The notes: generated by a model not told the origin, from the sequence alone. Shown: positions 6,001-38,881, counted from the stretch's first letter. The stretch: 64,000 nt of DNA from Candidatus Tenderia sp. (GCA_031416075.1 JANOSY010000090.1:8288-72287); one strand, 5' to 3'. Translations and numbers: made by a program.

Positions 6001-6291
6001 GTGAGCATCAACCGCGAGTTTGCGCTGCTCTCCAACGTCGGCAGTGTTTACTACTACGGTGGCAAGCCTGCCAAGATCATCGATGACTCCAGCATCAAGG
6101 TCAGCGTCTTTAACGACCTGGTCGGCCTCTCCGGACAGCAACTGATCACGGTAGAGAGCCTGGCAGAGATCGATCCTGCAATTTTTACTAACATTAAAAA
6201 CTTTAGCTATGGCGACATCTCGGTGATGCTGCCCCTTGATCAGCTCTATGATGGAGAGGATGACGAGGAACGTGAAGAGGATGGGGTGTAG
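1..6291 (+). CDS. Giant repetitive secreted/surface protein (adhesin-like, RTX-like GGxGxD repeats); 5' end lies outside the window
   Basis: Frame +1 is open from base 1 to the TAG at 6291 (>2090 aa). Dozens of GG(S/A/T)G(N/D)DTF motifs and repeated W-x-I...F-x-N-I-x-x-L-x-GG units; Gly/Asn/Thr/Ser-rich; acidic C-terminus. Confidence 0.8.
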   Translation: MHKYTNADTTLTTGGGLFNVTGVDYIADSTSSRSVLINTGAGMATLNISGSATLGRMQVAGLSITTAGKDGSNPSIQQGSTNANDTLTVTGAASFTSTASDGKIILSNSNNLQGDINLNSSGGYQGDITLNNSATTTTLNNVSVAGNLTVNANRHLTVKGSVIGKGSDGIDTNPSNPTTTTLALNFGQGGSNSTFTANGAIAAGNINSMGDDIVNITLQGGAGNDTFTLNSSGTLTTLNGGAITLNGASGNDTFNIHTAIAGSVNGGDGDDVFNLNATGLAITSINGNGGDNTLSGAAENTEWLISGSDAGKITTSGNNTVNFSGIKNLTGGSGDDSFTLGSGGSITGTLDGGAGENSLTARDANNVWLVAAVSSISSVDNATRFSNIKTLNGGSGNDAFTLTGAFAGEIHGNGGSNTLQATNSSNSWAIGAVNQLNTTLTFSDIQTVIGGTAVDTFTISDNFGGTLRGGDGNDVFNIAASLTGVLQGEGGDDVFNLNATGLSIASIDGGVGSNTLRGANDLLADWLISGSDAGRLTTTGGGVVNFTNVKHLTGNSAADNFTLGSAGVVTGTLNGGGGANRLSARNSDNVWSVATVGGTSSVNNATSFTNIQTLNGGTGNDTFTLTGAFAGVISGNGGSNTLQATNSTNSWAIGAVNQLNTTLTFSDIQTVIGGTGVDTFTITDNFAGTLNGGDGNDTFNIAASISGQLNGGTGDDSFTLNALGLTIADLIGGGGNDTLRGANEIASWSISGSDAGRLTTTNAGSVNFSGIKNLTGGSAADTFTLGDAGSVTGTVDGGAGSNSLTGRATGNQLWTIITGNSSATYVNRFFNIQTLNSVAGDDTFTLSSDYSGTINGGTGNDTFTLSSLIPSYSGTLNGGAGNDIFNIGTRVTGTLNGGDGNDTFNINAAGLTIATLIGGDGFDILRGNNATATWLISALDSGSITSTLADNITYSGIEHLQGGSGDDTFTLEVAGGVTGSIDGDGGSNTLNGRATGNNLWTIAGNSSAVSNVAEFRNMQRLNGGSGVDTFNISSDFIGTLNGGAGADIFNINATGLNITSLIGGEGLDTLRGANETATWNISGMDSGTRNTTTTLAFSSIENISGGSGDDTFTLGNSGVVSGTLDGGTGSNRLNGRAQGDNDWLITETLSSVSYVFAFRNMQHLYGGNGVDTFTLNGTLNGNISGSVNGMAGDDIFNISIAITEQLLGGEGNDTFNINSNDLNIASIDGGTGSNTLRGANESSRWQLTGSNNGTLITAFDVSGLALKEITFANINRLQGGTADDWFTLNNVASLETLTIDGGDNGLLGDTVDLSTLTGALRIVLGGSGISNIETLLGNSDPDTVLVGEERDNSWLINGINSGAVGGMQFSGMTHLQGGAANDSFAFSDTLTAPFGGRIDGAAGRDTINYSNLKEVVVTVGNAFDTGTGSRISSIEGVVGGLGSTLKGTDYDSLWTLNSGGGSGGTVKYQTIGNNPEQVTLFFDGFSTLLGGAGSDTLNFNVAGTMNGALHFNGGAGSNSVQLTGGGNGYSETYRVNDTQGEFAFSSGDNRYTLALSNVTSIRDDVTAPLTVYGTAANDTFVLNSGTFAVNGALPVQYSNKNSITFDGVTGDADVITVQVDLTLPGTVTFSAATVTSTPGATVTADTLTLNRVNGAGTATDRLQSDVKNMQLINSGGLYLENRGDLNLTQLSTTGAVDLLVNGNINSTAPLVADHALTLTAAGNISLTNATNTLRGPLGLKATTGKVTLNNGSNTTLARVDARSVALDVAGDLVSSDGIHVTGNSRLSATQALTITGSNDFASVELTANTIELHDSNSIDVTRAQASRSIAIHAEGTIGTGSLSAPQVALTSNGGQIIDTNGNADNIIADKVILRASSGIGLTDTAGLIDGLETRTAILDVINQNGNIGINNRGKVQVNTLVTQGNIAFKNEQSVSVDKIDAGYESGVVTIDISNGSLYGYAAIPTETPTQRSYKTTPDIIADRASIKATGDVGTQYEPVSVSINREFALLSNVGSVYYYGGKPAKIIDDSSIKVSVFNDLVGLSGQQLITVESLAEIDPAIFTNIKNFSYGDISVMLPLDQLYDGEDDEEREEDGV
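1201..2019 (+). repeat. Internal tandem duplication (669-bp period) in the giant protein gene
   Basis: 1252-1349 and 1921-2018 differ at only about 2 positions (LQATNS.NSWAIGAVNQLNTTLTFSDIQTVIGG). accctgaccggtgcgtttgccgg occurs at both 1201 and 1870. Confidence 0.9.
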
Positions 6292-6303: not shown

Positions 6304-6319
6304 TGGCATAGCAATTGCT
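6304..6319 (+). promoter_or_regulatory. sigma54 (RpoN) -24/-12 promoter for fliK
   Basis: TGGCAT-agcaa-TTGCT with GG-N10-GC spacing, 35 bp before the fliK ATG. Confidence 0.7.
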
Positions 6320-6354: not shown

Positions 6355-7581
6355 ATGTTAACTATGCAGCTGAGCCTACAGGCTATTCCTTTAGTATTGA
6401 ACGCCTCTCCAGCGGCTGGGGCTGGATCTTCTCTGAAGACACAACCTGTTGATAATGCTGGTGATGTTGTCGGGGCTGACTTCATTGACTCCTTGAAGGA
6501 GTCAATTCAGGAGTTGGCGCGGGGTGAGATTGCGCCACTGTTGGCACTCGATCAGGCCCAGCTGTTGGCAACGGTTGAGCAATATCTTGCTGGCGAGGCG
6601 GGGTTGTCGGGCGGCAAGGGCATGCCGCTTGAGGGTGTGGTTGCCGCTGATGACAGTGCTGAGTTAACGGCGAATCTGCGTGAGTTGATGGAGCGTTTAC
6701 GGACGCTGTTGTTGAATGGCCCGTCCGTGGCCCCATCGGTCGCCGAACTGTCGGGGACGGCAGTGGCGACTGCAGTGGTTGACAGTGTGGCGGCCCAGGC
6801 ATCCTTTGATCAGCGCCGACTGCTTGAGCGTTTTCAGTCACTGCCCGAGTTGCGGCGCTCAACAGAGGCTGTTGCTTTTGCCCCAGCGCAGCCGACGATC
6901 CTTTTGGATAGTCCTTTGAATAGCGCCTCCCTTACCCAGGGCGATGAGCTTGTATTGCAGTTGGGAAAGATGGCTGAATTGAGTGCGGTCGCCATGCCAC
7001 TCAAGGAGGGGGCGTTGTTAGATGCGAAAGGTGCTGGCATTGATTTGAGTTCGTCATTGACAGCCACCACCACGCGCCAGCCGGGTTTATTGACAGGCAG
7101 TGCCGAGGCGCGTCCGGTTTCACCCACCTATATTCATGTGCCGTTAGGTAACACTCAGTGGCAGAGTGAACTTGGCAATCGTGTCACCTGGCTGGCGCGG
7201 GCCGGTGGGAATCAAAGTGCGGAGATACGTCTGAATCCAGCCAATCTTGGGCCGATTGAGGTCAAGATAATGATGAAAGATGACCAGGCCACTATTACCT
7301 TTAATGCACAGCATGGTGTTGTACGCGACGCTATTGAGGCGAGCCTGCCACGGTTGCGGGAGATGTTTTTGAATAGTGGCATGCAGTTGGCCCAGGCTAA
7401 TGTTTCAGACCAGCCATTTCAGGAGTCTCGCCAGCGCCAACAGTCTGAATCGGGGGAGGGTGATGGTCCTTTTCAAGAGTCGAACAGTCAAGCAGATGAG
7501 TCTGGTGAGCAGGCCTCTTCTGTTGCTTTGTCCCAGAGACGTACTACCGAGCTTGTTGAAAGTGTTGACCTGTATGTGTAG
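6355..7581 (+). CDS. fliK: Flagellar hook-length control protein FliK
   Basis: C-terminal T3S4 domain (W..ELG.RV.W...QSAEIRLNPANLGPIEVKI...LPRLREMF...LAQANVS), VDLYV tail, upstream of fliL. Confidence 0.9.
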   Translation: MLTMQLSLQAIPLVLNASPAAGAGSSLKTQPVDNAGDVVGADFIDSLKESIQELARGEIAPLLALDQAQLLATVEQYLAGEAGLSGGKGMPLEGVVAADDSAELTANLRELMERLRTLLLNGPSVAPSVAELSGTAVATAVVDSVAAQASFDQRRLLERFQSLPELRRSTEAVAFAPAQPTILLDSPLNSASLTQGDELVLQLGKMAELSAVAMPLKEGALLDAKGAGIDLSSSLTATTTRQPGLLTGSAEARPVSPTYIHVPLGNTQWQSELGNRVTWLARAGGNQSAEIRLNPANLGPIEVKIMMKDDQATITFNAQHGVVRDAIEASLPRLREMFLNSGMQLAQANVSDQPFQESRQRQQSESGEGDGPFQESNSQADESGEQASSVALSQRRTTELVESVDLYV

Positions 7582-7901: not shown

Positions 7902-7917
7902 TGGCACCCTTATTGCT
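7902..7917 (+). promoter_or_regulatory. sigma54 promoter for the fliL operon
   Basis: TGGCAC-cctta-TTGCT matches the consensus; AT-rich IHF-like stretch upstream. Confidence 0.8.
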
Positions 7918-7960: not shown

Positions 7961-8479
7961 ATGGCCGCGAAGGGAAAACCGAAAGAAGAAGCCGCTGAGA
8001 AACCAGCCGGTGGTGGAAAGAAAAAGATGATCATCATGATTGCGGTGATTGTACTGGTTCTTGGTGGAGGCACAGTGGGTACGCTTTTTTTTACCGGGAT
8101 GTTGGGCGGTGGTGCAGATAAAAAAGAGGACGCTGCAAAACATGAGGCACCGGCTGCTCATGATCCTATCTATTTTGCTTTCGAAAAACCGATTGTTGTC
8201 AATTTTGAGACGGAATCAGGGTTACGTTTTTTACAGGTTGGGGTAGAGCTGATGTCTTATGATCCGCTGGCTATTGAAGCGGTGAAGACACATATGCCTG
8301 TGATAAAAAACAACGTAATTTTAATGTTTAGCAATCAGAGTTTTGAAGGATTGGCTGGCCGTGATGGCAAAGACAAACTACGTGAGCAGACGCTTAAAGA
8401 GATACAGGCAGTGATGGAAAAATACTTTGGTAAGCCTGGTGTTGAAGAGGTTTATTTCACCAGCTTTGTTATGCAATAG
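7961..8479 (+). CDS. fliL: Flagellar basal body protein FliL
   Basis: N-terminal TM helix, C-terminal VEEVYFTSFVMQ, gene order. Confidence 0.93.
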   Translation: MAAKGKPKEEAAEKPAGGGKKKMIIMIAVIVLVLGGGTVGTLFFTGMLGGGADKKEDAAKHEAPAAHDPIYFAFEKPIVVNFETESGLRFLQVGVELMSYDPLAIEAVKTHMPVIKNNVILMFSNQSFEGLAGRDGKDKLREQTLKEIQAVMEKYFGKPGVEEVYFTSFVMQ

Positions 8480-27877: not shown

Positions 27878-28054
27878 TTAGCGCCGAGCGTTTTTACGAT
27901 TGACCGCCCTGGACGGCATTAAATTTACCCCCCCCGTTATAATCCTCCCGCCATTATGGTAGATATAAATTGCAATGGTTTTTATGCTCGTACTGTTTTT
28001 AGCCTTCTGCTGGATATCAGTCCTGCCATTATAAAAATGGGGTATTACACTACT

Positions 28055-29704
28055 ATGTTTCAGATTTCACGGAAACTGAATTGCGTTTCGGTCGTTCTAT
28101 TGGCCAATGTTTTAACCGCATGTGGCGGTGGTGTGGGGGAGCCGGCAGCACCTGTTGACAGTAATGTGAATGTTGGGACGGGGGGAGGTGCCACCTTGAT
28201 TGTGCCCGCCAGTGCAAAGTTGCCGTGGCAGTTTGATACATCGTTAGTGATGATATTGCGTAATGCCAAAGGGGAAATACTGACCAACATCAGCTGTCAG
28301 GCGGTTAAACCAGCGGCACTGATGGTGGACAGTGACTGTTCGGGGGCGGTTGGTTTGCAGCTTGGCTCACAGGAGATCACCGTGACCTCGGGTACTATCA
28401 GCGCCACTGTGACGTTACAGGTAACACCACAACGTCATTGGGCGGGGACCCGTGGTGTGACCTCCAGCTCAGGGTCTGGCGATTACAACCTGATGGTGAC
28501 TCCGTCAGGCAATGGGCTGACTTGGGGGGCTAATCCTTCCGGAGTATTGGGGCAGAATAAATCGGGGACTCAGTTGACCTTTTCAACGCTGCCGATTGCG
28601 GTCATGAACGCCAGCGGCGCACCATCATTGGACACTATATATATGGCCTCGGCAGGTGATAGCGCTGTGCTGGCGCTTTCTGAAGAGGGCAAGGTCTGGG
28701 GCTGGGGGGATAATAGCGCTTGGGAGCTAACAGCTCAAAATCCCCAATTTTCGTTATTGCCAGTGCGGGTGCGTAACTCAGCCAATTCAGCAGATCTTGA
28801 GCGGGTGGTTCAAACGGCCATTGGCGATAATAATGCCTTGGCCTTGCTGGATGATGGCTCGGTGTTGAGTTGGGGATATTACAGTGGCCAGACCATAGGG
28901 GCGTCAGCGCGTTATCCAGGGTCTGTGATGCGTGCTGATGGGGCACTGTTGACAGGTATTGTCGGTATCAGTGCCGGTTGGAACTACTCATTGGCACTGG
29001 CGGCGGATGGACGTGTATGGGCCTGGGGGTACAACTCCGAAGGCCGCACGGGTACAGGGGCTGTCACACCGCCTATTGCGTTAGCCACTACGGTTAAACT
29101 TGTGGATGGTCGTGATCTTACCAATATTGTTGCTATTTCAGCGGGTTATAACTTTGGCATGGCGTTGACTCGAAATGGTGAGGTATATGCTTGGGGAGAT
29201 AATCTGAGTGGTCAGTTGGGGCAGGGGTCTAAATTGTCTCAAATGATACCTTATGCTGTTCAGGTGAAGAGTGAGGGGGGCGCACCACTGTCTGACATCA
29301 CCATGGTGGCGGCGGGTGGCAGACATGCGTTGGCGATGACCTCATCTGGAAAGGTATTGAGTTGGGGTTTGAATAATGACGGTCAGCTGGGGCGTGGTCC
29401 AAATATTGCTCAAGGTACGGGTAGCCGGGATCTACCGACTCAGGTAGTTGGTGAAGCTGCACTTGGTCAGCTTGAGGGTGTGGTATCGATTGCGGCAGGT
29501 TATAACCATAGCCTTGCCCTTAAATCCAACGGTGGGGTGCTGGTATGGGGGACCGGTTTCAGAGGCAATACAGGCCAGGGCGGGACGGTAGAAAACCCTT
29601 TCTATCAGCCAACACCAATACTGGTTAAAAATATGGAGGGGACGGGGCCGCTGGTGCTGACGCCATTGACCGCCTATCCAAATCTGTTGCAACGGTTCCG
29701 TTAG
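28055..29704 (+). CDS. RCC1/BLIP-II repeat lipoprotein with an N-terminal Ig-like segment
   Basis: Lipobox LTAC-GGG; about 7 repeats of AG..HSLAL..DG.V.(A/S)WG.N..GQLG; start could be further upstream (27956). Confidence 0.82.
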   Translation: MFQISRKLNCVSVVLLANVLTACGGGVGEPAAPVDSNVNVGTGGGATLIVPASAKLPWQFDTSLVMILRNAKGEILTNISCQAVKPAALMVDSDCSGAVGLQLGSQEITVTSGTISATVTLQVTPQRHWAGTRGVTSSSGSGDYNLMVTPSGNGLTWGANPSGVLGQNKSGTQLTFSTLPIAVMNASGAPSLDTIYMASAGDSAVLALSEEGKVWGWGDNSAWELTAQNPQFSLLPVRVRNSANSADLERVVQTAIGDNNALALLDDGSVLSWGYYSGQTIGASARYPGSVMRADGALLTGIVGISAGWNYSLALAADGRVWAWGYNSEGRTGTGAVTPPIALATTVKLVDGRDLTNIVAISAGYNFGMALTRNGEVYAWGDNLSGQLGQGSKLSQMIPYAVQVKSEGGAPLSDITMVAAGGRHALAMTSSGKVLSWGLNNDGQLGRGPNIAQGTGSRDLPTQVVGEAALGQLEGVVSIAAGYNHSLALKSNGGVLVWGTGFRGNTGQGGTVENPFYQPTPILVKNMEGTGPLVLTPLTAYPNLLQRFR

Positions 29705-29718
29705 CAGGTAGAACCGTA

Positions 29719-30129
29719 CTACTCTGGCCGTTGCAGTGATGCAATTAGCGGGCAGTTAACCTCACCATGGGTGGCACAGCACTGTGCCACCAGCCGGGCG
29801 AGTACTGCTTCGATACGTTGCAGATTGGCCAGCTTGTTGCGTACATCTTCGAGTTTGCGCTCTGCCAGCTCGCGCGCCTCACCGCAGTGGGCGCCATCCT
29901 CCAGTCTTAGTAATTCAGCTATCTCGTCCAGGCTAAACCCAAGCTGTTGGGCTGATTTAATAAATCTCAGCCGTGCGATATCGGCATGACTATAACGACG
30001 GATGCCGCCGTAGGGTTTCTTTGGCTCCAGTAACAGCCCCTTGCGTTGATAAAAACGGATCGTCTCGACGTTGACCCCGGCCCGTTTGGCAAAGATGCCG
30101 ATGGTTAACTGCTCTGAAGGGTTGCTCAT
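29719..30129 (-). CDS. merR: Hg(II)-responsive regulator MerR
   Basis: [26 protein letters not shown]; Hg-ligand Cys in HCGEA, CCA and NCPLI. Confidence 0.93.
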
Positions 30130-30134
30130 CTTGC

Positions 30135-30165
30135 TTGACTCCGTACTTGACTACAGAGGTAACGT
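30135..30165 (+). promoter_or_regulatory. mer operator/promoter (PmerT)
   Basis: TTGACT, 19-bp spacer (ccgtacttgactacagagg), TAACGT; matches the Tn21/Tn501 merOP layout. Confidence 0.85.
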
Positions 30166-30200
30166 TATACCATCACACAGCGATGTAAACGGGGTTAGAT

Positions 30201-30551
30201 ATGGCGGAATCGGGCAAAGGTCGTGGTGCATTGGCAATGGAGGGCATGGCGGCGATACTCGCCTCCACCTGCTGCCTTGGCCCGTTGATACTGGTGACAC
30301 TGGGCATCAGTGGCGCGTGGATCGCTAACTTGCGGGTATTGGAGCCGTATCGGCCGCTCTTTATCGCTGTGGCCCTGGTGGCTATGTTTTTGGCGTGGTG
30401 TCGTATCTTCCGGCCGGTGGTGGTGTGTAAGCCCGATGATCTCTGTGCGGTTCTGCAGGTACGACGCAGTTATAAAACTATCTTTTGGGGTGTGGCCGGA
30501 CTGGTGCTGATGGCCATCGGCTTCCCTTATCTATTACCGCTGTTCTACTAA
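30201..30551 (+). CDS. merT: Mercuric transport protein MerT
   Basis: ASTCCLGPL..LGISGAWI.NL..LEPYRP, loop Cys pair C.....C. Confidence 0.93.
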   Translation: MAESGKGRGALAMEGMAAILASTCCLGPLILVTLGISGAWIANLRVLEPYRPLFIAVALVAMFLAWCRIFRPVVVCKPDDLCAVLQVRRSYKTIFWGVAGLVLMAIGFPYLLPLFY

Positions 30552-30564
30552 CCGAGAGTTCGTT

Positions 30565-30849
30565 ATGAAAAAACTGTTTGTCATGATTGCGCTTGTTACA
30601 ATGATCTCTCCTGTCTGGGCTGCTACTCAGACCGCCACACTGGCGGTGGAGGGCATGACCTGTGGAGCCTGTCCGTTAACGGTCAAGAGTGCACTCTCCA
30701 ATGTGCCGGGTGTTACCCATGTGGAGGTGAGTCTGGATAGACGTGAGGCGCAGGTCAGTTATGACGACAATCGAGTCGATGTGAAGAGGCTGACGCAGGT
30801 GACGGAGGGGGCCGGTTACCCCTCTAAGGTAAAGGGGGGCAGTCGATGA
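30565..30849 (+). CDS. merP: Periplasmic mercury-binding protein MerP
   Basis: Signal peptide, GMTCGACP HMA motif, AGYPS. Confidence 0.92.
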   Translation: MKKLFVMIALVTMISPVWAATQTATLAVEGMTCGACPLTVKSALSNVPGVTHVEVSLDRREAQVSYDDNRVDVKRLTQVTEGAGYPSKVKGGSR

Positions 30850-31067
30850 GCGGCGTGACCCTGGAATCGACCCTGACCTGCTCGCATTGTGGACACACCA
30901 AAATGGAGACCATGCCGACCGATGCCTGTCAGTGGTTCTATGAGTGTGAAGGGTGCCAAACGGTGTTGAAACCAGAGGCGGGGGACTGCTGTGTCTTCTG
31001 CTCTTATGGCACCGTTCCCTGCCCGCCGATTCAGGAGCAGGGTAAAGGGGGAGGGTGTTGTGGTTGA
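30846..31067 (+). CDS. GDCCVxC-motif Cys-rich small protein
   Basis: CSHCGH...MPTDACQWFYEC..C...GDCCVFCSYGTVPCPP...GCCG; ATGA overlap with merP. Confidence 0.85.
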   Translation: MSGVTLESTLTCSHCGHTKMETMPTDACQWFYECEGCQTVLKPEAGDCCVFCSYGTVPCPPIQEQGKGGGCCG

Positions 31068-31086: not shown

Positions 31087-31374
31087 TTATAACGCTTCCG
31101 TTGGTGGCCGTTTACCTGATAACGAGTAAGCAAAAGAGATGACCAGGGCAACGGATAGATAAAGCTCGCGGGGTATCTCGTCACCTTGCTCAATTTCTGA
31201 CAGTGCCAGCACCAGTGGCAGATTCTCCTGGATGGGGATGTTGTGCTCTTTGGCAAGGGCGATGATCTCTTCGGCCAGACTGCCTTCACCCTTTGCCATC
31301 ACCTTGGGGGCCTGTTTGCCACTTTCCCACTGGAGCGCTACGGCCTTGGCGGGCGGGGAGTTGTGTTGGCTCAT
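31087..31374 (-). CDS. Stand-alone FlhB C-terminal-like protein (EscU/YscU family)
   Basis: KAVALQW....APKVMAKGEG.LAEEII.LAKEHNIPI...EIP.ELY..VA. Confidence 0.88.
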   Translation of the reverse strand: MSQHNSPPAKAVALQWESGKQAPKVMAKGEGSLAEEIIALAKEHNIPIQENLPLVLALSEIEQGDEIPRELYLSVALVISFAYSLSGKRPPTEAL

Positions 31375-32609
31375 GCGTTTACATCCAGTACGATGGTGGG
31401 CAGTGGTTGGCGGTGGGGTTCGGGCGGCTGCCCCTGAAAACAGCGCAGCTCCCGGCTCTCAATGCCCGCCTCATGATAACGTTGGGCTAACTCTGTTAAA
31501 TGTTGGCTGATAAGCGTCGTTGTCTCCATGCGCTCCGCCCAGAAGGTAGTGCTGATCTTTCCACCCTCCAGCTGTAACCGCACATGCATTGGGCCGAGTG
31601 ACTCCAGTTCCAGCGCGATAGTGATGTTCCAGCGGAGTTGTTGCTCATCGTTGTTATTTTCACTTCGCTCCTCGTTGATCACACATTGAAACAGATCAAC
31701 CCTCTCCTGATGACGAATCGGTAACTCAAAGCTCCATGTGAGTGGGTTCTGGTCCGACGTAGAGAGTGACGCCAGCTGGTGCAGTTGAGTTCTGGCCAGC
31801 CCCCCCTCCACCTGTTTGCCTAGCTCCTGCAGGAGCGCGAGGGTATTATTGAGTGTGGCCAATGTCGCCTCTGCCTGCCCTTGGGGTTGTGGACGCCCCC
31901 CCGGTATGGCGGGTACTGGGATGGATATTGAAGGCAATATTGGGCGTGTGAGTGATGGCGAGGCCGCTGTCTGTGCAGACTCTTTCTGTATGCTGCTGAG
32001 CAGTTGTAACAACAGGCTTTTAAGATCGTTACCCGGCGCGGGTGTGGTTTTGCTCTGGACCGTCTGTCGAAGTGCACTCTCCATAAACAGCCCCGACTCC
32101 TTAAAGGCCTGTTTAACGCCCTCAGCAGAGGCTATTTTTCCGCGATTGGGAAGTTGATCGAGGAACGCCTTTGCCAAAACCTGAATGGCCTGTGGCAATG
32201 GGACGGTACTGTTTTGTGGCTGGGCGATCCAGCTGATATTCGCCAGCAGTGGTGTTAGGCCCATTTGACGCGGCAGACTCTGCATCAGCGCCTGTTTAAG
32301 CACGGCGTCGGGCGAAGTGGTTTGACTGAGCACTTTTAAGAGTGGTGTATCACCAAGTTTGCTCACCTCCAGCTGAAGCTGTTGCCCAACAATGAGTGGT
32401 TGTGCGGTGTTGGCCTGAAGCTGGTGCGGTGCTGCCGGTTGGCTGGAAGATGAACGGTTGAGTGAGGGGAGTAGCTGTAGTAATACGTGGTTGCTGGCGA
32501 GCTGCTTAATTACCACCGCCTGTAACAGCTGCCCAACACGCAGTGGTTGCGGTTGTGCCGTGGCAGCGGCTAGATTGGGCAAGGTTGAAGGGGGTCCATT
32601 AATTTTCAT
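31371..32609 (-). CDS. Second FliK-family protein
   Basis: SGLFMES, W.FELP, C-terminal W.ITIALELESLGPMHVRLQL...FWAE, LDVNA tail; coupled to the FlhB-like gene. Confidence 0.75.
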   Translation of the reverse strand: MKINGPPSTLPNLAAATAQPQPLRVGQLLQAVVIKQLASNHVLLQLLPSLNRSSSSQPAAPHQLQANTAQPLIVGQQLQLEVSKLGDTPLLKVLSQTTSPDAVLKQALMQSLPRQMGLTPLLANISWIAQPQNSTVPLPQAIQVLAKAFLDQLPNRGKIASAEGVKQAFKESGLFMESALRQTVQSKTTPAPGNDLKSLLLQLLSSIQKESAQTAASPSLTRPILPSISIPVPAIPGGRPQPQGQAEATLATLNNTLALLQELGKQVEGGLARTQLHQLASLSTSDQNPLTWSFELPIRHQERVDLFQCVINEERSENNNDEQQLRWNITIALELESLGPMHVRLQLEGGKISTTFWAERMETTTLISQHLTELAQRYHEAGIESRELRCFQGQPPEPHRQPLPTIVLDVNA

Positions 32610-32613
32610 GGGA

Positions 32614-32640
32614 TAAAGCGGGTCCGGATTTGGCCGATGA
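32614..32640 (+). promoter_or_regulatory. sigma28 promoter upstream of the pentapeptide-repeat gene
   Basis: TAAA-N15-GCCGATGA. Confidence 0.65.
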
Positions 32641-32741
32641 ATCTGTATATTGCCAAGCTGGGCCAATATTGTATATGAGATTGTGCATAAAGCGATGGTG
32701 AGTGATTTTCAGTAATCTGTTTTCTTGTGGAAGTGATTGAA

Positions 32742-33656
32742 ATGCAAACACATACCCTGTGGTATATACAAAAAGATGGTGAGGTCCGCGGACCCTATCC
32801 ACGGACGGTGATTGCCCAATATCTGCTGCTTAACCGGCTGCGTAAAGAGGACCAGGTCAGCACTGACCAGAAGCATTGGCAAGCCATTGCTGATGTAAAA
32901 GAGTTAGTGCCAGCCGCTGTTAAGGGAACGCTCAGTGGTGCTGTGAATCAGTATCTGGCCGATGTGGCAGCGCGTGATGATGAACATATACCCACATCAA
33001 AACAGAATACCGAGGATGTCACAAACCAATATCTACTGGATGTTGCCAAACGTAACGCCAGGGCGTTGAATGGCATAGAACCTGAGGATGTTGTTGAATA
33101 TAATCGAAACAGATCGAAAACTTCGTCATCAGAGCAGAAAAAAAAACCATTAACGATAGTCTTGGCAGTCACCGCCATACTCGCCACTGTTGGTGCCCTG
33201 GTTGCATTGGTACTGAACTATACGCCTCAGGCCAACGGGCCGGAGGCAGAGTGTTCCGCAGCGCCAGCCGCCAATGTTAACTGGAGCAACTGTAGCCTGC
33301 AGGGCGCTGTGCTTGATAACAGCAATCTGCAACAGGCGGTAATGCGTAATGCAAATCTCACAGGCAGCACGTTGCAGCGGTCTGATTTACAGAATGCCGA
33401 TCTGGCCTATGCCAACTTGAGTCTTGTCAATCTTGGTCAAGCGAATTTGCGCGGCGCACAATTGATGGGGGCAAAACTTAACGGCAGTGATTTAAGTGGC
33501 GCTGATTTAAGTGGTGCAGATCTTTCGTATGCAGATTTGAGCGGGGCCAACATGATGGGTGTCAACCTGGTCGGCACCAAACTTGATCAGACCCTGTGGC
33601 TAGACAAAACGGTCTGCGCACGTGGTTCAGTGGGGCAATGTTTGGCTGGGCGATAA
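32742..33656 (+). CDS. Membrane-anchored pentapeptide-repeat protein with a GYF_2-like N-terminus
   Basis: LWYIQKDGEVRGPY N-terminus, one TM helix, A(D/N)L.. pentapeptide run, Cys pairs flanking the repeats. Confidence 0.85.
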   Translation: MQTHTLWYIQKDGEVRGPYPRTVIAQYLLLNRLRKEDQVSTDQKHWQAIADVKELVPAAVKGTLSGAVNQYLADVAARDDEHIPTSKQNTEDVTNQYLLDVAKRNARALNGIEPEDVVEYNRNRSKTSSSEQKKKPLTIVLAVTAILATVGALVALVLNYTPQANGPEAECSAAPAANVNWSNCSLQGAVLDNSNLQQAVMRNANLTGSTLQRSDLQNADLAYANLSLVNLGQANLRGAQLMGAKLNGSDLSGADLSGADLSYADLSGANMMGVNLVGTKLDQTLWLDKTVCARGSVGQCLAGR

Positions 33657-33670
33657 TATAATCTGATATC

Positions 33671-33720
33671 TGCACAGATCTGGCGCATTGGGTCGTGGTG
33701 TGATGCACAGTTTTTAGGCA
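33671..33720. promoter_or_regulatory. Tandem NtrC-like enhancer sites
   Basis: TGCACagatctgGCGCA (33671-87) and TGCACagtttttAGGCA (33704-20) versus consensus TGCAC-N7-GTGCA; 33 bp apart, about 75-120 bp upstream of a sigma54 promoter. Confidence 0.6.
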
Positions 33721-33793
33721 TAGATGGATACTGTTCTGCTTTTCACCTTACCGTCTCCCCTGTTAGATCATGACGTTACTATTAATTTTAATG

Positions 33794-33809
33794 TGGCATG
33801 TGAATTGCT
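33794..33809 (+). promoter_or_regulatory. sigma54 promoter of the oxidoreductase-cytochrome operon
   Basis: TGGCAT-gtgaa-TTGCT. Confidence 0.75.
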
Positions 33810-33910
33810 GAGCCACTTTGGAGATACTGTTTTTATTAAATATGTGCGAGGTTGTGCGGTAGGTAAGTGATGACTGCAATGGGCTGTATGTAGTACAGCA
33901 AGTTTATGCA

Positions 33911-33984
33911 GGGCCAACGGTGGCCCATCTATGACAAAGGCGTCCACAGCATGGGGAGTTTTCCATGTGCTGGACGCCTTTTTT
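33911..33984 (+). promoter_or_regulatory. ANTAR (NasT/NasR-type) antitermination leader: twin hexaloop hairpins overlapping an intrinsic terminator
   Basis: gggcc-AACGGT-ggccc, 6-nt linker, gac-AAAGGC-gtc (both loops have A1 and G4). Hairpin 2 overlaps the 5' arm of terminator ggcgtcca...tggacgcc-TTTTTT. Confidence 0.8.
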
Positions 33985-34030
33985 ATTGGTTTTTATAGCA
34001 GTTTTTAGTGATGAGGTGATTGTGGGGAAT

Positions 34031-35626
34031 ATGGCGGCGGCAGTAGATCAAGCAGCGTTAGCATTGCCCCCTGTTGTGATTGTAGGCAGCGGGCCAGTGG
34101 GGGTTCGTGTCGCACAGGAGTTGTTGCGTCTGGACCCGCTGTTGCATTTGGTGATCTATGGCGACGAACCGTGGGAGCCCTATAACCGTGTGCGATTGAC
34201 CCAGATGTTGGCAGGGCACTCCAGTTGGGCGGATATATTTCAATCGTTGCAGCTGCCCACAACCGGGAATATTGAGTGTCGTTACAACTGCGCGGTGGTT
34301 GCTATTGATCGCCATGAGAAAACAGTGACGGATCTGTTAGGACGGCAGCAGCCATATTCGCGGTTGGTATTGGCAGTGGGATCACGCCCTCATGTGCCAA
34401 CCATTCCTGGCAAGGCGCTGCACAATGTATTTACCTTCCGCAATATGTCGGACCTGAATGGCCTGCTGGCCCGCCGTATTGGTAGCCGTCGAATGGTGGT
34501 GGTAGGTGGGGGGCTGTTAGGGATTGAGGCCGCCCATGCACTACAGCGCAGCCATACGGATGTTTCGATTATTCAACATAGTGATCGTTTGATGGGGCGT
34601 CAGCTGGATGAGCATGCTGCTGCCATGATGTGTGCTGAGGTTGAGTCTCTGGGAATCAATGTCTATCTCAACAGTGGTGTTCAGGCGATATTGGGTGAGC
34701 GTTTGGTCGAAGGGGTACGTCTGCGTGATGGCAGCGTACTCGATTGCGATACCGTAGTTTTTTGTACCGGCATAAAACCCAATGTGGAACTGGCGCGTGG
34801 TGCAGGGTTGCGAGTGGGGCGTGGTATTCGGGTAGATGATCTGTTGCAAACATCCAACCCGGCGATCTATGCAGTGGGTGAGTGTACTGAACATAATAAT
34901 CAGATTTATGGTTTGGTTGCGCCGGGGCTGGAGCAGGCCTCGGTGGCGGCCCATAACATTGTTGGCCAGCACGCATTTTATCGTGGCAGTACGGCAGTGG
35001 CGCGACTCAAAGTAGTGGGCACAGCGCTGTTGAGCATTGGCGCAGTGGTAGAGGAGGAGATCCCTAGCCACTACCGCACAGCGGTTTATCAGAATGATGA
35101 AAAGGGTTACTACCGTAAGTTGGTGATGGTGGGTGGTAGACTTCAAGGGGCGATTGCCATAGGTGAGTGGCCCCAGCATCAACGGGTACAAGAGGGTGTG
35201 GTGCACCATCGCCGTCTCTGGCCATGGCAGCTGATGCGTTTTAAACGGAGCGGTGAGTTGTGGACAGAGCAGCAGTCGCAGGATGTGCGTCAGTGGCCTG
35301 CCAATGCAATTGTCTGTAACTGCACCGGTGTCAGTCGTGGTGTATTAAGCGCAGCGGTCACCGGTGGCTGCACAACGGTTGAGATGTTAGTGCAGTGTAC
35401 GGGGGCCTCTACGGTGTGTGGTGGTTGCAAGCCACGTTTGGCTGAGATGTTGGGCGAGTCTGCTGTGCCCATAAAAAACAGAGCAGGCAATCTGCTCATG
35501 GGGGCGTCGTTGCTGGCGATGTTGCTGGCCTTAATAACACTCTTGGTTAAACCCATTCCGTTTGTGACCACCGTGCAACAGGGGTGGCATATCAGTGATC
35601 TATGGAGTGCAACGTTTTCAAAATAG
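34031..35626 (+). CDS. NirB/NasB-like FAD/NAD(P)H oxidoreductase with a BFD [2Fe-2S] domain and a first TM helix; ends at an in-frame TAG
   Basis: IVGSGPVG, PYNRVRL, VVGGGLLGIEAA, IYAVGEC, CNC...CGGC; no siroheme/[4Fe-4S] domain. The ORF-track start (33965) lies inside the terminator, so the real start is about 34022-34031. Confidence 0.8.
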   Translation: MAAAVDQAALALPPVVIVGSGPVGVRVAQELLRLDPLLHLVIYGDEPWEPYNRVRLTQMLAGHSSWADIFQSLQLPTTGNIECRYNCAVVAIDRHEKTVTDLLGRQQPYSRLVLAVGSRPHVPTIPGKALHNVFTFRNMSDLNGLLARRIGSRRMVVVGGGLLGIEAAHALQRSHTDVSIIQHSDRLMGRQLDEHAAAMMCAEVESLGINVYLNSGVQAILGERLVEGVRLRDGSVLDCDTVVFCTGIKPNVELARGAGLRVGRGIRVDDLLQTSNPAIYAVGECTEHNNQIYGLVAPGLEQASVAAHNIVGQHAFYRGSTAVARLKVVGTALLSIGAVVEEEIPSHYRTAVYQNDEKGYYRKLVMVGGRLQGAIAIGEWPQHQRVQEGVVHHRRLWPWQLMRFKRSGELWTEQQSQDVRQWPANAIVCNCTGVSRGVLSAAVTGGCTTVEMLVQCTGASTVCGGCKPRLAEMLGESAVPIKNRAGNLLMGASLLAMLLALITLLVKPIPFVTTVQQGWHISDLWSATFSK

Positions 35627-36004
35627 GTGACTGGGTTTACGTTGCTGGGTATGACCGTTTTGGCACTGCTGCTCTCGTTGCGGAAGCGGATTAAAAAATT
35701 TTCGTTTATCGATTTTGGTTATTGGCGTGTACTACACTCTGTATTAGGAGCGTTATTGTTGATGTTGTTAATCCTGCATACCGGGTTACGTATGGGGGAC
35801 AACTTTAATTTTCTATTGATGTTCTGTTTTGTTGCCATTGCACTGATCGGCGCGGTGGTGGGTATGGTGTCGGCGCTTGAGAGTGGTGGTGCCAGTATTG
35901 CATTGGGGCGTTGGCGTCGTTACTCGGGCTGGATCCATCTTGGTCTCTTCTGGCCGCTGCCGGTGCTGCTCGGTTTTCACATCCTCAGTAGTTACTATTT
36001 TTAG
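35627..36004 (+). CDS. Four-helix membrane domain with four His (di-haem b-like); in-frame continuation of the upstream ORF
   Basis: Starts directly after the TAG in the same frame with no RBS; two H-x13-H pairs (VLH...ILH; WIH...GFH). Confidence 0.65.
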   Translation: MTGFTLLGMTVLALLLSLRKRIKKFSFIDFGYWRVLHSVLGALLLMLLILHTGLRMGDNFNFLLMFCFVAIALIGAVVGMVSALESGGASIALGRWRRYSGWIHLGLFWPLPVLLGFHILSSYYF

Positions 36005-36012
36005 GGGCGACG

Positions 36013-37365
36013 ATGAGATCGAGCAATATTAAATGGTGGATTGCTTGGTTGTTGCTGAGTTTAGGGGTGGCTGCTTACTACGGATATGCACTGATAAGTG
36101 AAGACAAGACTGCACTGTTGCCAGGAACGACCAGCCACGGTCATTATCAGATAGAGTTGGCGTGTGGCAGTTGTCACGGGGAGGCATTTGCAGGTGGTGA
36201 GGCGTTACAGACAGCCTGTATCAACTGCCACGGCGATCAGATGAAGGCAGCGCGCGACTCACATCCACGGAGTAAATTTACCGATCCACGTAATGCCGAC
36301 AGGGTTGCACTGCTGGACGCTCGTTACTGCATCACCTGTCATCGTGAGCATAAACCAGAGGTGACGGATGCGATGGGCGTGACGTTGCCAAATGACCTCT
36401 GTTTTATCTGCCACAAAGATATAGCGCAAGAGCGCGCTAGCCATAACGATATCTCTTTTGACAGCTGTGCCAGTGCCGGTTGCCATAACTATCACGACAA
36501 TCAGGCGCTGTATGAAGCGTTCTTGGTTAAACATGGCAATGAGCCAGCCCATCTGACTCCTCAACGTGTTCCTGAACGTAATCTGCATCAATGGAATCTG
36601 GCGGTTGCATCTTCACCGGTAACAGCACTTGCAGCGGGAGATGCCGATGCCCCGGTCAACAGACAGCTAGCGGCGGATGAATTTCAACACTGGGTTGATT
36701 CCGGACACGCCACGGCTGGTGTTAACTGTTCTGCCTGCCATCAGCAAGAGAATAAAAATTGGATCGACAAGCCAGGCGTAAAAATATGTGAGAGCTGCCA
36801 CAAACAGGAGGTATCGGGGTTTACGGCGGGTAAACACGGTATGCGCCTGGCACAGGGAATGTCACCCATGGTACCGGCCATGGCCCGGTTACCCATGAAG
36901 GCAAAAATTGCCAAGCAGCCACTCGATTGCAACAGCTGTCATGGCGCGCACCAAGGCGGGGTGAAAGAGGCGGTGGTTGATGCCTGCATGGGGTGTCATG
37001 ACGATGAACATAGCAGACACTATCCAGACTCACCTCATGCGCAGCTGTGGCAGCAGGAGCAGGCAGGGTTGATAGCTGTGGGTAGCGGTGTCTCCTGTGC
37101 GACCTGTCACATGCCACGGGAGGAGGTGCGCCAACTCGGGGAGAGACATGTTGCCATTCAACACAATCAGAGCCTCAATCTTCGGCCCAACGAAAAAATG
37201 GTACGTAGTGTCTGTATGCATTGCCACGGCTATCAGTTTGCTATCAACGCACTGGCTGATGGCGCGTTAATAAAAAACAACTTCTCATCATCACCCACTG
37301 TAGAGGTGAAGAGTGCACAAATGGCGTTGGCACGTGATGAGAAGCGGGGGACAAGATCAAAATAG
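36013..37365 (+). CDS. Membrane-anchored multihaem cytochrome c (10 CxxCH + 1 CxxxxCH)
   Basis: N-terminal hydrophobic anchor; CGSCH, CINCH, CITCH, CFICH, CASAGCH, CSACH, CESCH, CNSCH, CMGCH, CATCH, CMHCH. Confidence 0.88.
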   Translation: MRSSNIKWWIAWLLLSLGVAAYYGYALISEDKTALLPGTTSHGHYQIELACGSCHGEAFAGGEALQTACINCHGDQMKAARDSHPRSKFTDPRNADRVALLDARYCITCHREHKPEVTDAMGVTLPNDLCFICHKDIAQERASHNDISFDSCASAGCHNYHDNQALYEAFLVKHGNEPAHLTPQRVPERNLHQWNLAVASSPVTALAAGDADAPVNRQLAADEFQHWVDSGHATAGVNCSACHQQENKNWIDKPGVKICESCHKQEVSGFTAGKHGMRLAQGMSPMVPAMARLPMKAKIAKQPLDCNSCHGAHQGGVKEAVVDACMGCHDDEHSRHYPDSPHAQLWQQEQAGLIAVGSGVSCATCHMPREEVRQLGERHVAIQHNQSLNLRPNEKMVRSVCMHCHGYQFAINALADGALIKNNFSSSPTVEVKSAQMALARDEKRGTRSK

Positions 37366-37411
37366 TGCTTTTGAGTGAGTCTGTTCATTCAACGTGTAGA
37401 AGGAGATAGCA

Positions 37412-37999
37412 ATGAACCATATGCGAAAAAAAGCGCTGGTCATGGGTGTCGTTAGCACAGTGCTGTTATCAGGGTGTGGTCAGCAAGCTGAAACCCCGGC
37501 AGCTGTTAATACAGCCATTACACCACAAAAAATGGCGGACGCCCTGCATGCAGTGATGGAGGCAGATCGAGCCGTCTATACCAAACTGGTGATCAACCGC
37601 TTGGTTAAAGAGGAGAAGGTGATTAAAGCCAGTGAGCACTGGCAGGATGATAAGGCGCTACCCCTGCCAGCACAGATGTTTCGTTTTGGTGCGGAGCGGG
37701 TTGCGGAAAGCAACAGTGATTTCAGTTATTCGCTAATCTCATCCTGGCCGATCAATAAACAGAATGAGCCAAAAACAGAGTCAGAGGCGAGTGGGTTGAA
37801 GTTTATTGAAGAGAACCCCGGAAAAAATTTCTATAAAGAGGAATCTCTGGGCGGAAAAAATTATTACACCGCCATATATCCCGATGTTGCTGTTGCCCCG
37901 GCCTGTGTTGAGTGCCATAACGACCATAAAGATACACCTAAGAGTGATTTTAAAATTGGCGATACCATGGGTGGTGTGGTGATTCGTATACCACTATAA
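37412..37999 (+). CDS. DUF3365 (Tll0287-like) monohaem cytochrome c lipoprotein
   Basis: Lipobox LLSGC, LPLPAQM, S..PIN..N.P...E, ACVECHN, GD.MGGVVIRIP. Confidence 0.78.
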   Translation: MNHMRKKALVMGVVSTVLLSGCGQQAETPAAVNTAITPQKMADALHAVMEADRAVYTKLVINRLVKEEKVIKASEHWQDDKALPLPAQMFRFGAERVAESNSDFSYSLISSWPINKQNEPKTESEASGLKFIEENPGKNFYKEESLGGKNYYTAIYPDVAVAPACVECHNDHKDTPKSDFKIGDTMGGVVIRIPL

Positions 38000-38027
38000 A
38001 TGTTTAAATACCGTGGCCTGTTAAGCG

Positions 38028-38881
38028 TCACGGGATTTTTGTAACGTTAAAATGGAGCAAAGCCATTCGATGATGTGCACCGCTTAAGCTTTCCATCCCA
38101 AGCGTTATCTTGATATTGCGTAAATCCAGTTCAACATGCCAGCGCTGTTTATATAACTCAGCCAGGGATTTTCTCGGTATCTCTTTGTCAGGCAATAATA
38201 TTGTTACCAATACTTTTTTATCCGTTTTAAGTTCACGGATAGTTAGTTCACCAGGAAACTCTTCATATTGTGCCTTGTTCATCCAGTCCGGCATGATCTT
38301 GGGTTTTTTCCAGGCCACAACATGATCGCGTACACCTAGCTTCTGACCTCTTCTGAAATCAGTTTTACGCACAGCATGTTGTTGGAATACAACATCAACT
38401 CCGTTTGCTATCAGCATGGCAATCAGAAAATAGCTACAATAATAACGGTCGCTCAACACCACATCGCCAGGCTCAAAGCTCTCTAATAACTGCCGTAACA
38501 GAGCGTGTTCACTCGCCCCTTTGCCTTTAAATGCTTCCATGGCTGCATCGAGCATCACGCCACTGGACAAACAAATGACACCAACAATTCTGGCGATGGG
38601 AAAGCCTAATCCAGGCGCTTGACCGCGTTGCTGGGGATAAACGTCTTGATTGGCCGCGGTGTCTGGCAGGGTGATGGTGGTGCCATCGACCAGCTTTACG
38701 CGACGTCCTTGCCAGCGCCATGCGTTCGGTGTCTGTTCCGCAACCAAACGCCCCAATTGCTTTACCAGTACAGCTGTGGGCTGGTGAGTAGATTGAAAAA
38801 ACTGTACGAGTCTGTCTTTTTGGCACAATGGCTAATGCGCTTCTGTTGATGGCCCGGTAATTTATGGTTAGGATGAGGCAT
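38028..38881 (-). pseudogene. IS4-family transposase, internally deleted and 3'-truncated
   Basis: DDE segments VKLVDGTT, DRYYCSY, LYKQRWHVELDLRNIK. The N-terminus (MPHPNH...FFNLLTSPQL, ATG 38881) stops early in a different frame. The C-terminus is lost after LGMESLS. Confidence 0.8.

Follow-up and report, generated by a model that had tools for sequence, protein, structure and literature searches.

In Bradyrhizobium japonicum, the co-transcribed narK-bjgb-flp-nasC genes under the control of NasS-NasT couple nitrate assimilation to the detoxification of nitric oxide (NO) (Cabrera et al. 2016, PMC4724949). An operon with some resemblance to this unit was found in a 64,000-nucleotide stretch of DNA from Candidatus Tenderia sp. 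(GCA_031416075.1, JANOSY010000090.1:8288-72287). This entire stretch is called the window here, and positions are counted from its first letter. The locus at 33671-37999 is a damaged copy of a widespread, uncharacterised operon found in bacterial nitrate-assimilation (nas) gene clusters, and its three genes encode a flavocytochrome, an 11-haem cytochrome c and a stand-alone sCache_haem protein. As in Bradyrhizobium, an NAD(P)H flavoprotein and a single-domain globin of the relatives accompany nitrate-assimilation genes under NasT antitermination; the likeness to Flp and Bjgb is one of description. On the other hand, Flp is soluble, and no membrane di-haem domain, periplasmic multihaem cytochrome or sCache_haem protein is described for that unit. 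Unlike the Flp-globin pair, moreover, the operon in the window has no globin gene, although 18 of 21 relatives have one.

Each gene product also resembles another described system in part. The first shares the FAD/NAD(P)H, Rubredoxin_C-like and BFD [2Fe-2S] domains of NirB (TIGR02374) but lacks the siroheme/[4Fe-4S] half, scores below the cut-off of the model and ends in a five-helix membrane domain with four His residues. The combination of a cytoplasmic flavin/NAD(P)H module and a membrane domain with two His pairs recalls NADPH oxidase (NOX), ferric reductase and cytochrome b561, as an analogy rather than a shown homology. These carriers differ from the product here, whose flavin domain belongs to the NirB/pyridine-nucleotide-disulfide-oxidoreductase type and is supplemented by a [2Fe-2S] cluster. 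The C-terminal six-haem domain of the second product may share the fold of HAO, IhOCC, NrfA and octahaem nitrite reductase (ONR), and it gives profile matches to dihaem units of ONR and NrfA, but the operon cytochrome has 11 haems, a membrane anchor and no CxxCK motif. NrfA-type enzymes are fed with quinol electrons via NrfH or NrfBCD, whereas the electron source here would be NAD(P)H via the fused flavocytochrome b. The third product is like cluster 1 of the stand-alone sCache_haem proteins (PF11845, CxxCH near the C-terminus, periplasmic, no signalling domain), whose members are stated to have no telling gene associations and a function that is left open (Deshpande et al. 2026, bioRxiv 10.64898/2026.02.01.703092). 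Unlike the members described there, the subgroup here has fixed operon partners and nas-type regulation. Finally, the leader of the operon is like the NasR/NasT leaders (Rfam narK RNA, RF03032) in following a sigma54 promoter and in having two hexaloop hairpins with A1 and G4, of which the second overlaps a terminator. This hexaloop consensus is said to go back to Ramesh et al. in 2012. Unlike the classical ANTAR targets, the operon genes are not classical nas genes, and the match of the leader to RF03032 is a lead only (22 bits, below the gathering score of 43.2).

Is this gene arrangement common? Relatives of the cytochrome were collected in 28 loci from Gammaproteobacteria, Chromatiaceae metagenome-assembled genomes (MAGs), Marinobacter, Crenothrix, Microbulbifer, Luteolibacter, Brevifollis, Planctomycetales, Fibrobacteria and Sulfurovum records, and records labelled Verrucomicrobia are also among the loci with the operon. 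The order of flavocytochrome, cytochrome and sCache_haem is kept in nearly all 28 loci. Among the cultured strains named as carriers are Microbulbifer yueqingensis CGMCC 1.10658, Luteolibacter sp. AS25 and Hahella sp. CCB-MM4. In an even sample of the Gammaproteobacteria class (401 genomes, the window's own included), the operon occurs in 24 genomes and in 20 of the 320 genera. For neighbourhood counts, 22 loci were taken from the 24 carriers, and one of them (L059, from genome G215), with 34% identity and no sCache gene, was dropped as a different system, leaving 21; a 72% complete genome (G397) is outside these counts. Because the 28-locus and 21-locus sets overlap, they are not independent of each other, nor do related genomes count as independent samples.

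In the 21 loci, nasT is adjacent to the operon in 10 and nrtABD in 8, and at least one nas-linked gene (nasT, nrt or narK) lies within about 9 kb in 11. Two loci (L039 and L040) have the order nasT, flavocytochrome, 11-haem cytochrome, sCache_haem, globin and nrtA-B-D, followed by nirB-nirD-nasA. Thus, the nas linkage that had been supposed in the initial annotation from the regulatory motifs is borne out by relatives whose operon is flanked by nasT and nrtABD and has nirBD-nasA nearby, as well as by the recurrence of the leader described below. A fusion of a PP2C phosphatase and a Ser/Thr kinase was observed beside narK in the nas clusters of two genomes, namely the window's genome (L035:3820-5526, minus strand of contig C55) and G282 (L040:11514-13217). 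Ser/Thr kinases are tied to NO-binding Cache_haem-HAMP receptors in a 2026 preprint that makes no mention of nitrate.

A globin gene lies directly downstream of the operon in 18 of the 21 loci, and the globin is of the 3-on-3 type in 14 and truncated in 4. The 3-on-3 globins are closest to HGb of Methylacidiphilum (2e-33) and are related to Vitreoscilla Hb and the flavohaemoglobins. The globins of the operons, of either type, have no signal peptide, while the monohaem cytochromes c encoded in the operons of many relatives have one. Since two different globin families have been recruited to the same operon position, NO or O2 chemistry is suggested. As an almost constant neighbour, the globin is at least as suggestive of NO handling as of nitrite assimilation. 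The operon globin of a Fibrobacteria MAG (L021:8308-9615) is 436 residues long and consists of three tandem globin domains.

Does the operon stand in for the siroheme nitrite reductase? It had been proposed that the siroheme domain of NirB is replaced here and that the system is siroheme-independent. This proposal does not hold. The window's genome has narK, a full-length nirB (809 amino acids, 944.9 bits, cut-off 578), a nasA-type nitrate reductase gene and a gene for a NirA-like protein; the NasA and NarK genes are beside nirB, and the NasA protein ends in a BFD/NifU-like [2Fe-2S] domain. An absence of siroheme nirBD from genomes with the operon had also been anticipated, and the opposite was found: the siroheme half of NirB is commoner in carriers (21 of 24 genomes) than in non-carriers (134 of 377, a tally that counts two unpublished genomes, G039 and G141). 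The three carriers without siroheme NirB are G068, which has a two-domain NirA-like gene beside nasA, the divergent G215 and the 72% complete G397. The operon accompanies the siroheme nitrite reductase and does not replace it.

The flavoprotein part of the first gene (34031-35623, plus strand) comprises an FAD/NAD(P)H domain of the NirB N-terminal type, a BFD-like [2Fe-2S] domain and the first transmembrane (TM) helix, as assigned from Pfam, TIGR02374 and invariant Cys residues. Pfam matches are Pyr_redox_2 (6.9e-56), Rubredoxin_C (1.7e-11) and Fer2_BFD (9.7e-10). The TIGR02374 match (389.9 bits, E 2.6e-116, cut-off 578.35) is limited to positions 1-467 of the 794 in the model, and a Pfam search found no NIR_SIR siroheme/[4Fe-4S] domain (PF03460, PF01077) in this gene. 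The listed start codon, ATG 33965, falls within the leader terminator, and ATG 34031 is, judging from the sequence, the likelier start.

The initial annotation described this NirB-like module as being in frame with a four-His membrane domain. The reading frame is indeed shared, but the coding sequence is not continuous: a TAG codon after the first TM helix (35624-35626, plus strand), which had been missed, precedes a 125-codon membrane segment that is still in frame (35627-36004, plus strand). Comparison of homologue codons revealed that this TAG lies at a conserved Gln codon and is a nonsense allele splitting a fused gene. Among 24 homologous loci, 23 have CAG or CAA here, one has AAA and none has a stop codon; CAG is the codon of the nearest relative (L002), which shares 95% DNA identity with the window over 8 kb. 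The intact gene thus encodes a single protein of about 657 residues, and CAG was changed to TAG in the window. Contigs from two other public sequencing runs, X2 of the same study and X4 of another, are letter-identical to the window across the site, so that the TAG allele is not an assembly slip. When the positive-inside rule is applied to the alignment, the stop would fall in the periplasmic loop between helices 1 and 2. A GTG follows the TAG and is a possible start for the 125-residue membrane part.

According to the alignment and the model, the membrane part (35627-36004) contains four of the five TM helices and two His pairs. The pairs, H569/H583 and H636/H650, lie on two membrane helices with 14 residues within each pair. 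These four His residues and the four BFD Cys residues (429, 431, 463 and 466, numbered from the Met at 34031) are invariant in 16 of 16 aligned full-length proteins, and the His residues were also compared over 21 membrane domains. Because of the geometry of the His pairs, two haems b across the membrane are predicted. The electron-export architecture that was recognised initially is thus upheld at the level of invariant residues. Pfam DUF4405 matches the membrane part below its cut-off (17.9 bits against 26.7). The model of this domain is a helical bundle (pLDDT 88) whose structural neighbours include E. coli CybB (Z 10.5), cytochrome b561 (8.8), Dcytb (8.5) and NOX5 (8.0); DUOX1 is the best Foldseek match (E 0.11), and STEAP4 is also among the fold matches. 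In two relatives, the gene before the cytochrome gene has a GPP34 domain and is not a NirB-like flavoprotein gene (L023:3880-5988 and L026:4791-5981). The GPP34 open reading frame (ORF) of L023 also holds the membrane part, and the flanks of L028 resemble those of L023 and L026.

The second gene (36013-37365, plus strand) encodes a membrane-anchored periplasmic cytochrome c in which, from motifs, model and profiles, the N-terminal five haems are c3-like and the C-terminal six-haem domain is predicted to have an HAO/NrfA-like fold. A hydrophobic N-terminal signal-anchor is followed by ten CxxCH motifs and one CxxxxCH motif, in agreement with the 11 haem motifs counted before. All 11 motifs and 12 further His residues are invariant or nearly so across the cytochrome alignment. 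The family is large and unnamed, with 3665 matches at E <=0.001 among 8000 scored candidates, and its members appear in databases as "cytochrome c3 family" or "hypothetical". The names given by ESM Atlas ("cytochrome c3 family", "putative nitrite reductase") are automatic labels of the family itself and were not used as evidence. Pfam and NCBIfam matches include MtrC/MtrF domains and DmsE-type decahaem cytochromes.

An AlphaFold model of the cytochrome (pLDDT 77, without haems, the N-terminal third poor) has HAO as its best Foldseek match (E 3e-3). In a search independent of Foldseek, the nine best chains are all HAO, IhOCC, HAO-like reductase, NrfA, OcwA or ONR, with Z values of 7.3-4.8 and 142-202 aligned residues, over model residues of about 207-427, that is, over the C-terminal domain only. 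The family profile matched ONR (3.8e-9) and NrfA (4e-9) among PDB sequences. When the family was aligned with one NrfA by hhalign, a single dihaem unit (haems 4 and 5) was aligned and the catalytic haem pocket was not. The modelled fold points to the N-oxide-converting multihaem superfamily.

The third gene (37412-37999, plus strand) encodes a stand-alone sCache_haem (DUF3365/Tll0287-like) monohaem lipoprotein, as assigned from Pfam, the lipobox and CxxCH. The earlier identification of a DUF3365-like CxxCH lipoprotein was correct: the product matches PF11845 with 74.3 bits (cut-off 24.1) and has an LSGC lipobox, a CVECH motif, an export signal and no fused signalling domain. This is the most conserved gene of the operon, with a mean column identity of 61% (alignment A2) compared with 46% for the cytochrome (A1). 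The subgroup lacks the second Cys for the Cys/His ligation described for Tll0287. A phmmer search of the protein against PDB sequences gave nothing useful. Docking of the cytochrome with the sCache_haem protein scored 0.43 against 0.00 for the best control, which weakly supports an interaction; in the benchmark, 58 of 80 solved complexes and 2 of 110 mismatched pairs came up to this mark, but scores of 0.60 or lower comprised just 7 of the 80 solved complexes plus both passing mismatches. The docking runs share at least 90% of the contacts, and the pLDDT of the partner is at least 84.

Upstream of the operon, an NtrC-like box, a sigma54 promoter and an ANTAR twin-hairpin/terminator leader had been noted, and all of them were found again on the plus strand. 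By pattern matching, the NtrC-like enhancer box TGCACAGATCTGGCGCA (33671-33687) lies about 107 bp upstream of the sigma54 (-24/-12) promoter TGGCATgtgaaTTGCT (33794-33809). A comparative hairpin scan gave the ANTAR-type hairpins P1 (33911-33926, GGGCC-AACGGT-GGCCC, a 5-bp stem and a hexaloop with A1 and G4) and P2 (33933-33944, GAC-AAAGGC-GTC). P2 overlaps the 5′ arm of the intrinsic leader terminator AAAGGCGTCCA...TGGACGCCTTTTTT (33936-33985), whose arms are aligned in a ctRNA_p42d match. The box TGCACAGATCTGGCGCA is the sole match to TGCAC-N7-GYGCA in the window; since chance alone predicts 0.58 matches and at least one occurs in 36 of 100 shuffles, the box alone is not significant. By eye, GCAC-N7-GYGC-like boxes are present upstream in other loci. 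The sigma54 pattern has three matches in the window against 0.34 expected, and three were reached in none of 100 shuffles. The other two matches (6304-6319 and 7902-7917) lie just before a FliK-like gene (6355-7581) and fliL (7961-8479), both in a large flagellar/chemotaxis cluster.

P2 with a terminator/T-run was found in 10 of 23 upstream regions of homologous operons, where the stems vary and the hexaloop type is kept. L015 has a variant form of the hairpin, and sigma54-type promoters precede many homologous operons without an ANTAR leader (both by eye). Folded as one RNA, the leader is no better than shuffles (z = -0.65), and the argument therefore rests on the comparative hairpins. Rfam at gathering thresholds gave no match in the window region or in seven related loci, and a generic terminator scan did not report the leader terminator.

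Are the corresponding regulators encoded in the same genome? Yes: rpoN is present, as are a bona fide ntrC (758 bits, cut-off 559) and only one ANTAR gene, located beside moaB-moeA-mobA on contig C45. The whole genome (3.49 Mb, both strands) was scanned for hexaloop hairpins whose 3′ side pairs into a terminator. Three matches were obtained: the operon in the window, the nrtABD leader and one that was taken as chance from the printed sequence alone. The nrtA leader combines NtrC-like boxes and a sigma54 promoter with three hexaloop hairpins and a terminator. In contrast, no terminator leader accompanies the NtrC-like boxes and the sigma54 promoter of nirB, and an Rfam E-value search of the nirB/narK intergenic region gave no match. 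Within one genome, then, nirB-nasA (L035:7740-7990) lacks an antitermination leader, whereas nrtABD (L038:12220-12600, minus strand) has one. Nitrate/nitrite control seems, from these sequences, to be applied to transport and to the haem operon and not to the reductases. The postulated NtrC/sigma54/ANTAR control of the nas type is consistent with these motifs, with the regulator genes and with the placement of the only other leader before nrtABD.

With about even confidence, I regard the operon as an accessory module of the nas regulon whose transmembrane haem chain, driven by NAD(P)H, removes or salvages NO, nitrite or hydroxylamine while nitrate is being assimilated. The gene content, the cofactor-binding residues, the regulatory motifs and the nas linkage are observed directly, whereas the course of the electrons and its direction, the substrate and the identity of the catalytic protein are inferred. 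Transcription would start at the NtrC-dependent sigma54 promoter, giving a nitrogen limitation signal, and would read through the leader terminator only when NasT is bound to the twin hexaloop hairpins, giving a nitrate/nitrite signal. Cytoplasmic NAD(P)H would reduce the FAD, which would pass electrons to the BFD-type [2Fe-2S] cluster and then to the two haems b that are predicted to lie one above the other within the fused five-helix membrane domain. From there, electrons would reach the anchored periplasmic 11-haem cytochrome and then the stand-alone sCache_haem protein and, in many relatives, also the monohaem cytochrome c. From the geometry of the His residues and from redox potentials, I infer that NAD(P)H electrons flow outward. 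The flavoprotein could also keep the cytoplasmic globin of most relatives reduced for NO dioxygenation. The job of the module would be to clear or salvage reactive nitrogen oxides, namely NO and possibly nitrite or hydroxylamine, that are made or leaked in nitrate assimilation. Removal would be reductive in the periplasm and, where a globin is present, oxidative in the cytoplasm, beside siroheme NirBD.

I rate the operon as belonging with known kinds of systems, that is, nas-linked NO defence, multihaem N-oxide enzymes and NOX-like electron export. There is also a real chance that it represents a new enzyme class. One specific form of this idea is possible but on the unlikely side: a new class of periplasmic N-oxide reductase would draw its power directly from cytoplasmic NAD(P)H by way of a flavo-[2Fe-2S]-cytochrome b resembling NOX, bypassing the quinone pool, with the sCache_haem protein catalytic and the cytochrome as an electron store, and together with the globin it would form a two-compartment salvage loop for NO, nitrite and hydroxylamine. 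Searches of the literature, supplementary files such as the neighbourhood tables that accompany the sCache_haem preprints aside, turned up no account of the operon.

Several observations weigh against the accessory nas-module reading. No nas gene is within reach in 10 of the 21 sampled loci, and 12 of the 23 upstream regions have no ANTAR leader. The operons of the window's own lineage (the window, L002 and L004) have neither a globin gene nor a monohaem cytochrome c gene, and no 3-on-3 globin of this kind was found in the window's genome. All 11 motifs of the cytochrome end in His, there is no CxxCK and no catalytic site has been demonstrated; since 12 extra His residues are available for 11 haems, bis-His ligation of every haem is conceivable, in which case the cytochrome might serve only as a wire. 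The similarity of the profile to NrfA and ONR is confined to dihaem units like haems 4 and 5 of NrfA and does not cover the active site, and Z values of 5-7 are middling by the search tool's own note. The fold matches of the membrane domain are non-specific, as helical bundles such as talin score equally high (Foldseek, VIA). In addition, the only stand-alone sCache_haem protein studied so far, that of P. putida, is reported to bind NO weakly and to behave as a redox protein (bioRxiv 10.64898/2026.02.01.703092).

Other functions were considered as well. The operon might be an auxiliary periplasmic assimilatory nitrite reductase, in which the cytochrome or the sCache_haem protein makes ammonium from nitrite with NAD(P)H electrons, the ammonium is taken up and the product adds to that of NirBD. 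Membership in the nas regulon and the position between nasT and nrtABD would be expected of such an enzyme, as would the HAO/NrfA-like fold, the profile matches to ammonia-forming nitrite reductases and the nitrate/nitrite-type porin that is co-located and co-regulated in several loci. However, it would duplicate NirBD, which is present in 21 of the 24 carriers, and would do so without CxxCK or an alignment to the NrfA active site. It leaves the cytoplasmic globin unexplained, and on general bioenergetic grounds the outward flow of electrons would cost membrane potential for a reaction that can be done inside. I consider this function unlikely.

General electron export without N-oxide chemistry is quite improbable. 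Here, a NOX-like or ferric-reductase-like outlet would deliver electrons to metals or another periplasmic or extracellular acceptor, or would dump reductant, with the multihaem cytochrome as the wire. The MtrC/MtrF and DmsE-type decahaem matches fit such a role, the fold matches include OcwA and an S-layer undecahaem cytochrome, the conserved His residues suffice for all-bis-His haems, and the GPP34 variant of L023 and L026 dispenses with the NirB-like flavoprotein. No outer-membrane porin-cytochrome partner, however, was found in the flanks examined, and nitrate-specific antitermination, the placement in nas clusters and the partnership with globins would remain without explanation.

Highly doubtful, too, is the idea that the flavoprotein is mainly a cytoplasmic diaphorase for NasA, the globin or both, like Flp of Bradyrhizobium or NasC of Klebsiella, and that the membrane and periplasmic haem proteins serve as a redox/NO sensor or overflow. 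Flp is a precedent (PMC4724949), NasA of the window's genome ends in the BFD/NifU-like [2Fe-2S] domain that needs a donor, and relatives of the sCache_haem protein are NO sensors according to another preprint (bioRxiv 10.64898/2026.05.25.727664). Yet the fusion to the di-haem membrane domain is invariant, with a stop at the junction in 0 of 24 related loci. Further, the three core genes stay together even without adjacent globin and nas genes, and no signalling output domain is linked to the sCache_haem gene. Lastly, a siroheme-independent nitrite assimilation route with the NirB siroheme domain replaced, although suggested by the nas-type regulation and by a flavoprotein that is NirB-like over model positions 1-467 only and lacks NIR_SIR, is practically untenable, being contradicted in the window's genome by full NirB, NasA, NarK and a NirA-like protein and elsewhere by the excess of siroheme NirB among carriers, by the NirA-like gene beside nasA in G068 and by nirBD in the same cluster as the operon in L039 and L040.

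If the accessory nas-module reading is true, the operon would add a periplasmic compartment to the nitrate assimilation of aerobic bacteria, which is usually drawn as purely cytoplasmic, and it would likely be an added source or sink of NO, N2O or hydroxylamine. It would also be a bacterial NOX-like transmembrane electron export system built on a NirB-type flavoprotein. The operon gives the stand-alone sCache_haem proteins a concrete context, and if the catalytic role is true, it would be the first function for an orphan class. Since the copy in the window is broken and flanked by an insertion sequence, the value lies in the operon family and not in the window locus.

How was the window copy damaged? 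The three plus-strand genes, separated by gaps of 8 and 46 nt, lie between a pentapeptide-repeat gene (32727-33656) and a fragment of an IS4-family transposase gene (38028-38828, minus strand, from profile searches). A terminator-like hairpin at the end of the operon (38017-38044, plus strand) was reported by a terminator scan and has a counterpart in L002. Synteny with L002 stops at 38087, just beyond this terminator, at the start of the IS4 fragment. Beyond the operon, L002 has a porin gene and then nrtA, each with its own sigma54 promoter and ANTAR-type leader. No porin gene of the L002 type was found in the window's genome, and its nrtA, 96% identical to that of L002, lies about 300 bp from the end of another contig. 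The IS4 event removed the neighbouring porin gene. Since the flavocytochrome is split by the change from CAG to TAG and the porin neighbour was lost to IS4, the window copy may be impaired. Upstream of the L002 porin gene (L002:8153-8310), the sigma54 promoter is followed by an ANTAR-type hairpin overlapping a terminator; this sequence suggests that the porin is a nitrate/nitrite-regulated outer-membrane channel.

Some other features of the window were observed. An ORF of 2077 codons (58-6291) has no Pfam match at E 1e-12. Besides the FliK-like gene at 6355-7581, a second, separate gene with a FliK hook-length-control domain lies at 31371-32666. At 29719-31067, a gene for a MerR-family regulator (Pfam) is divergent from small ORFs that, from their translations only, look like MerT, MerP (GMTCGAC) and a Cys-rich protein. 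Adjoining these mer-like genes is a gene for an RCC1-repeat (WD40_RLD) protein of 582 residues (27956-29704), which is unusual in bacteria.

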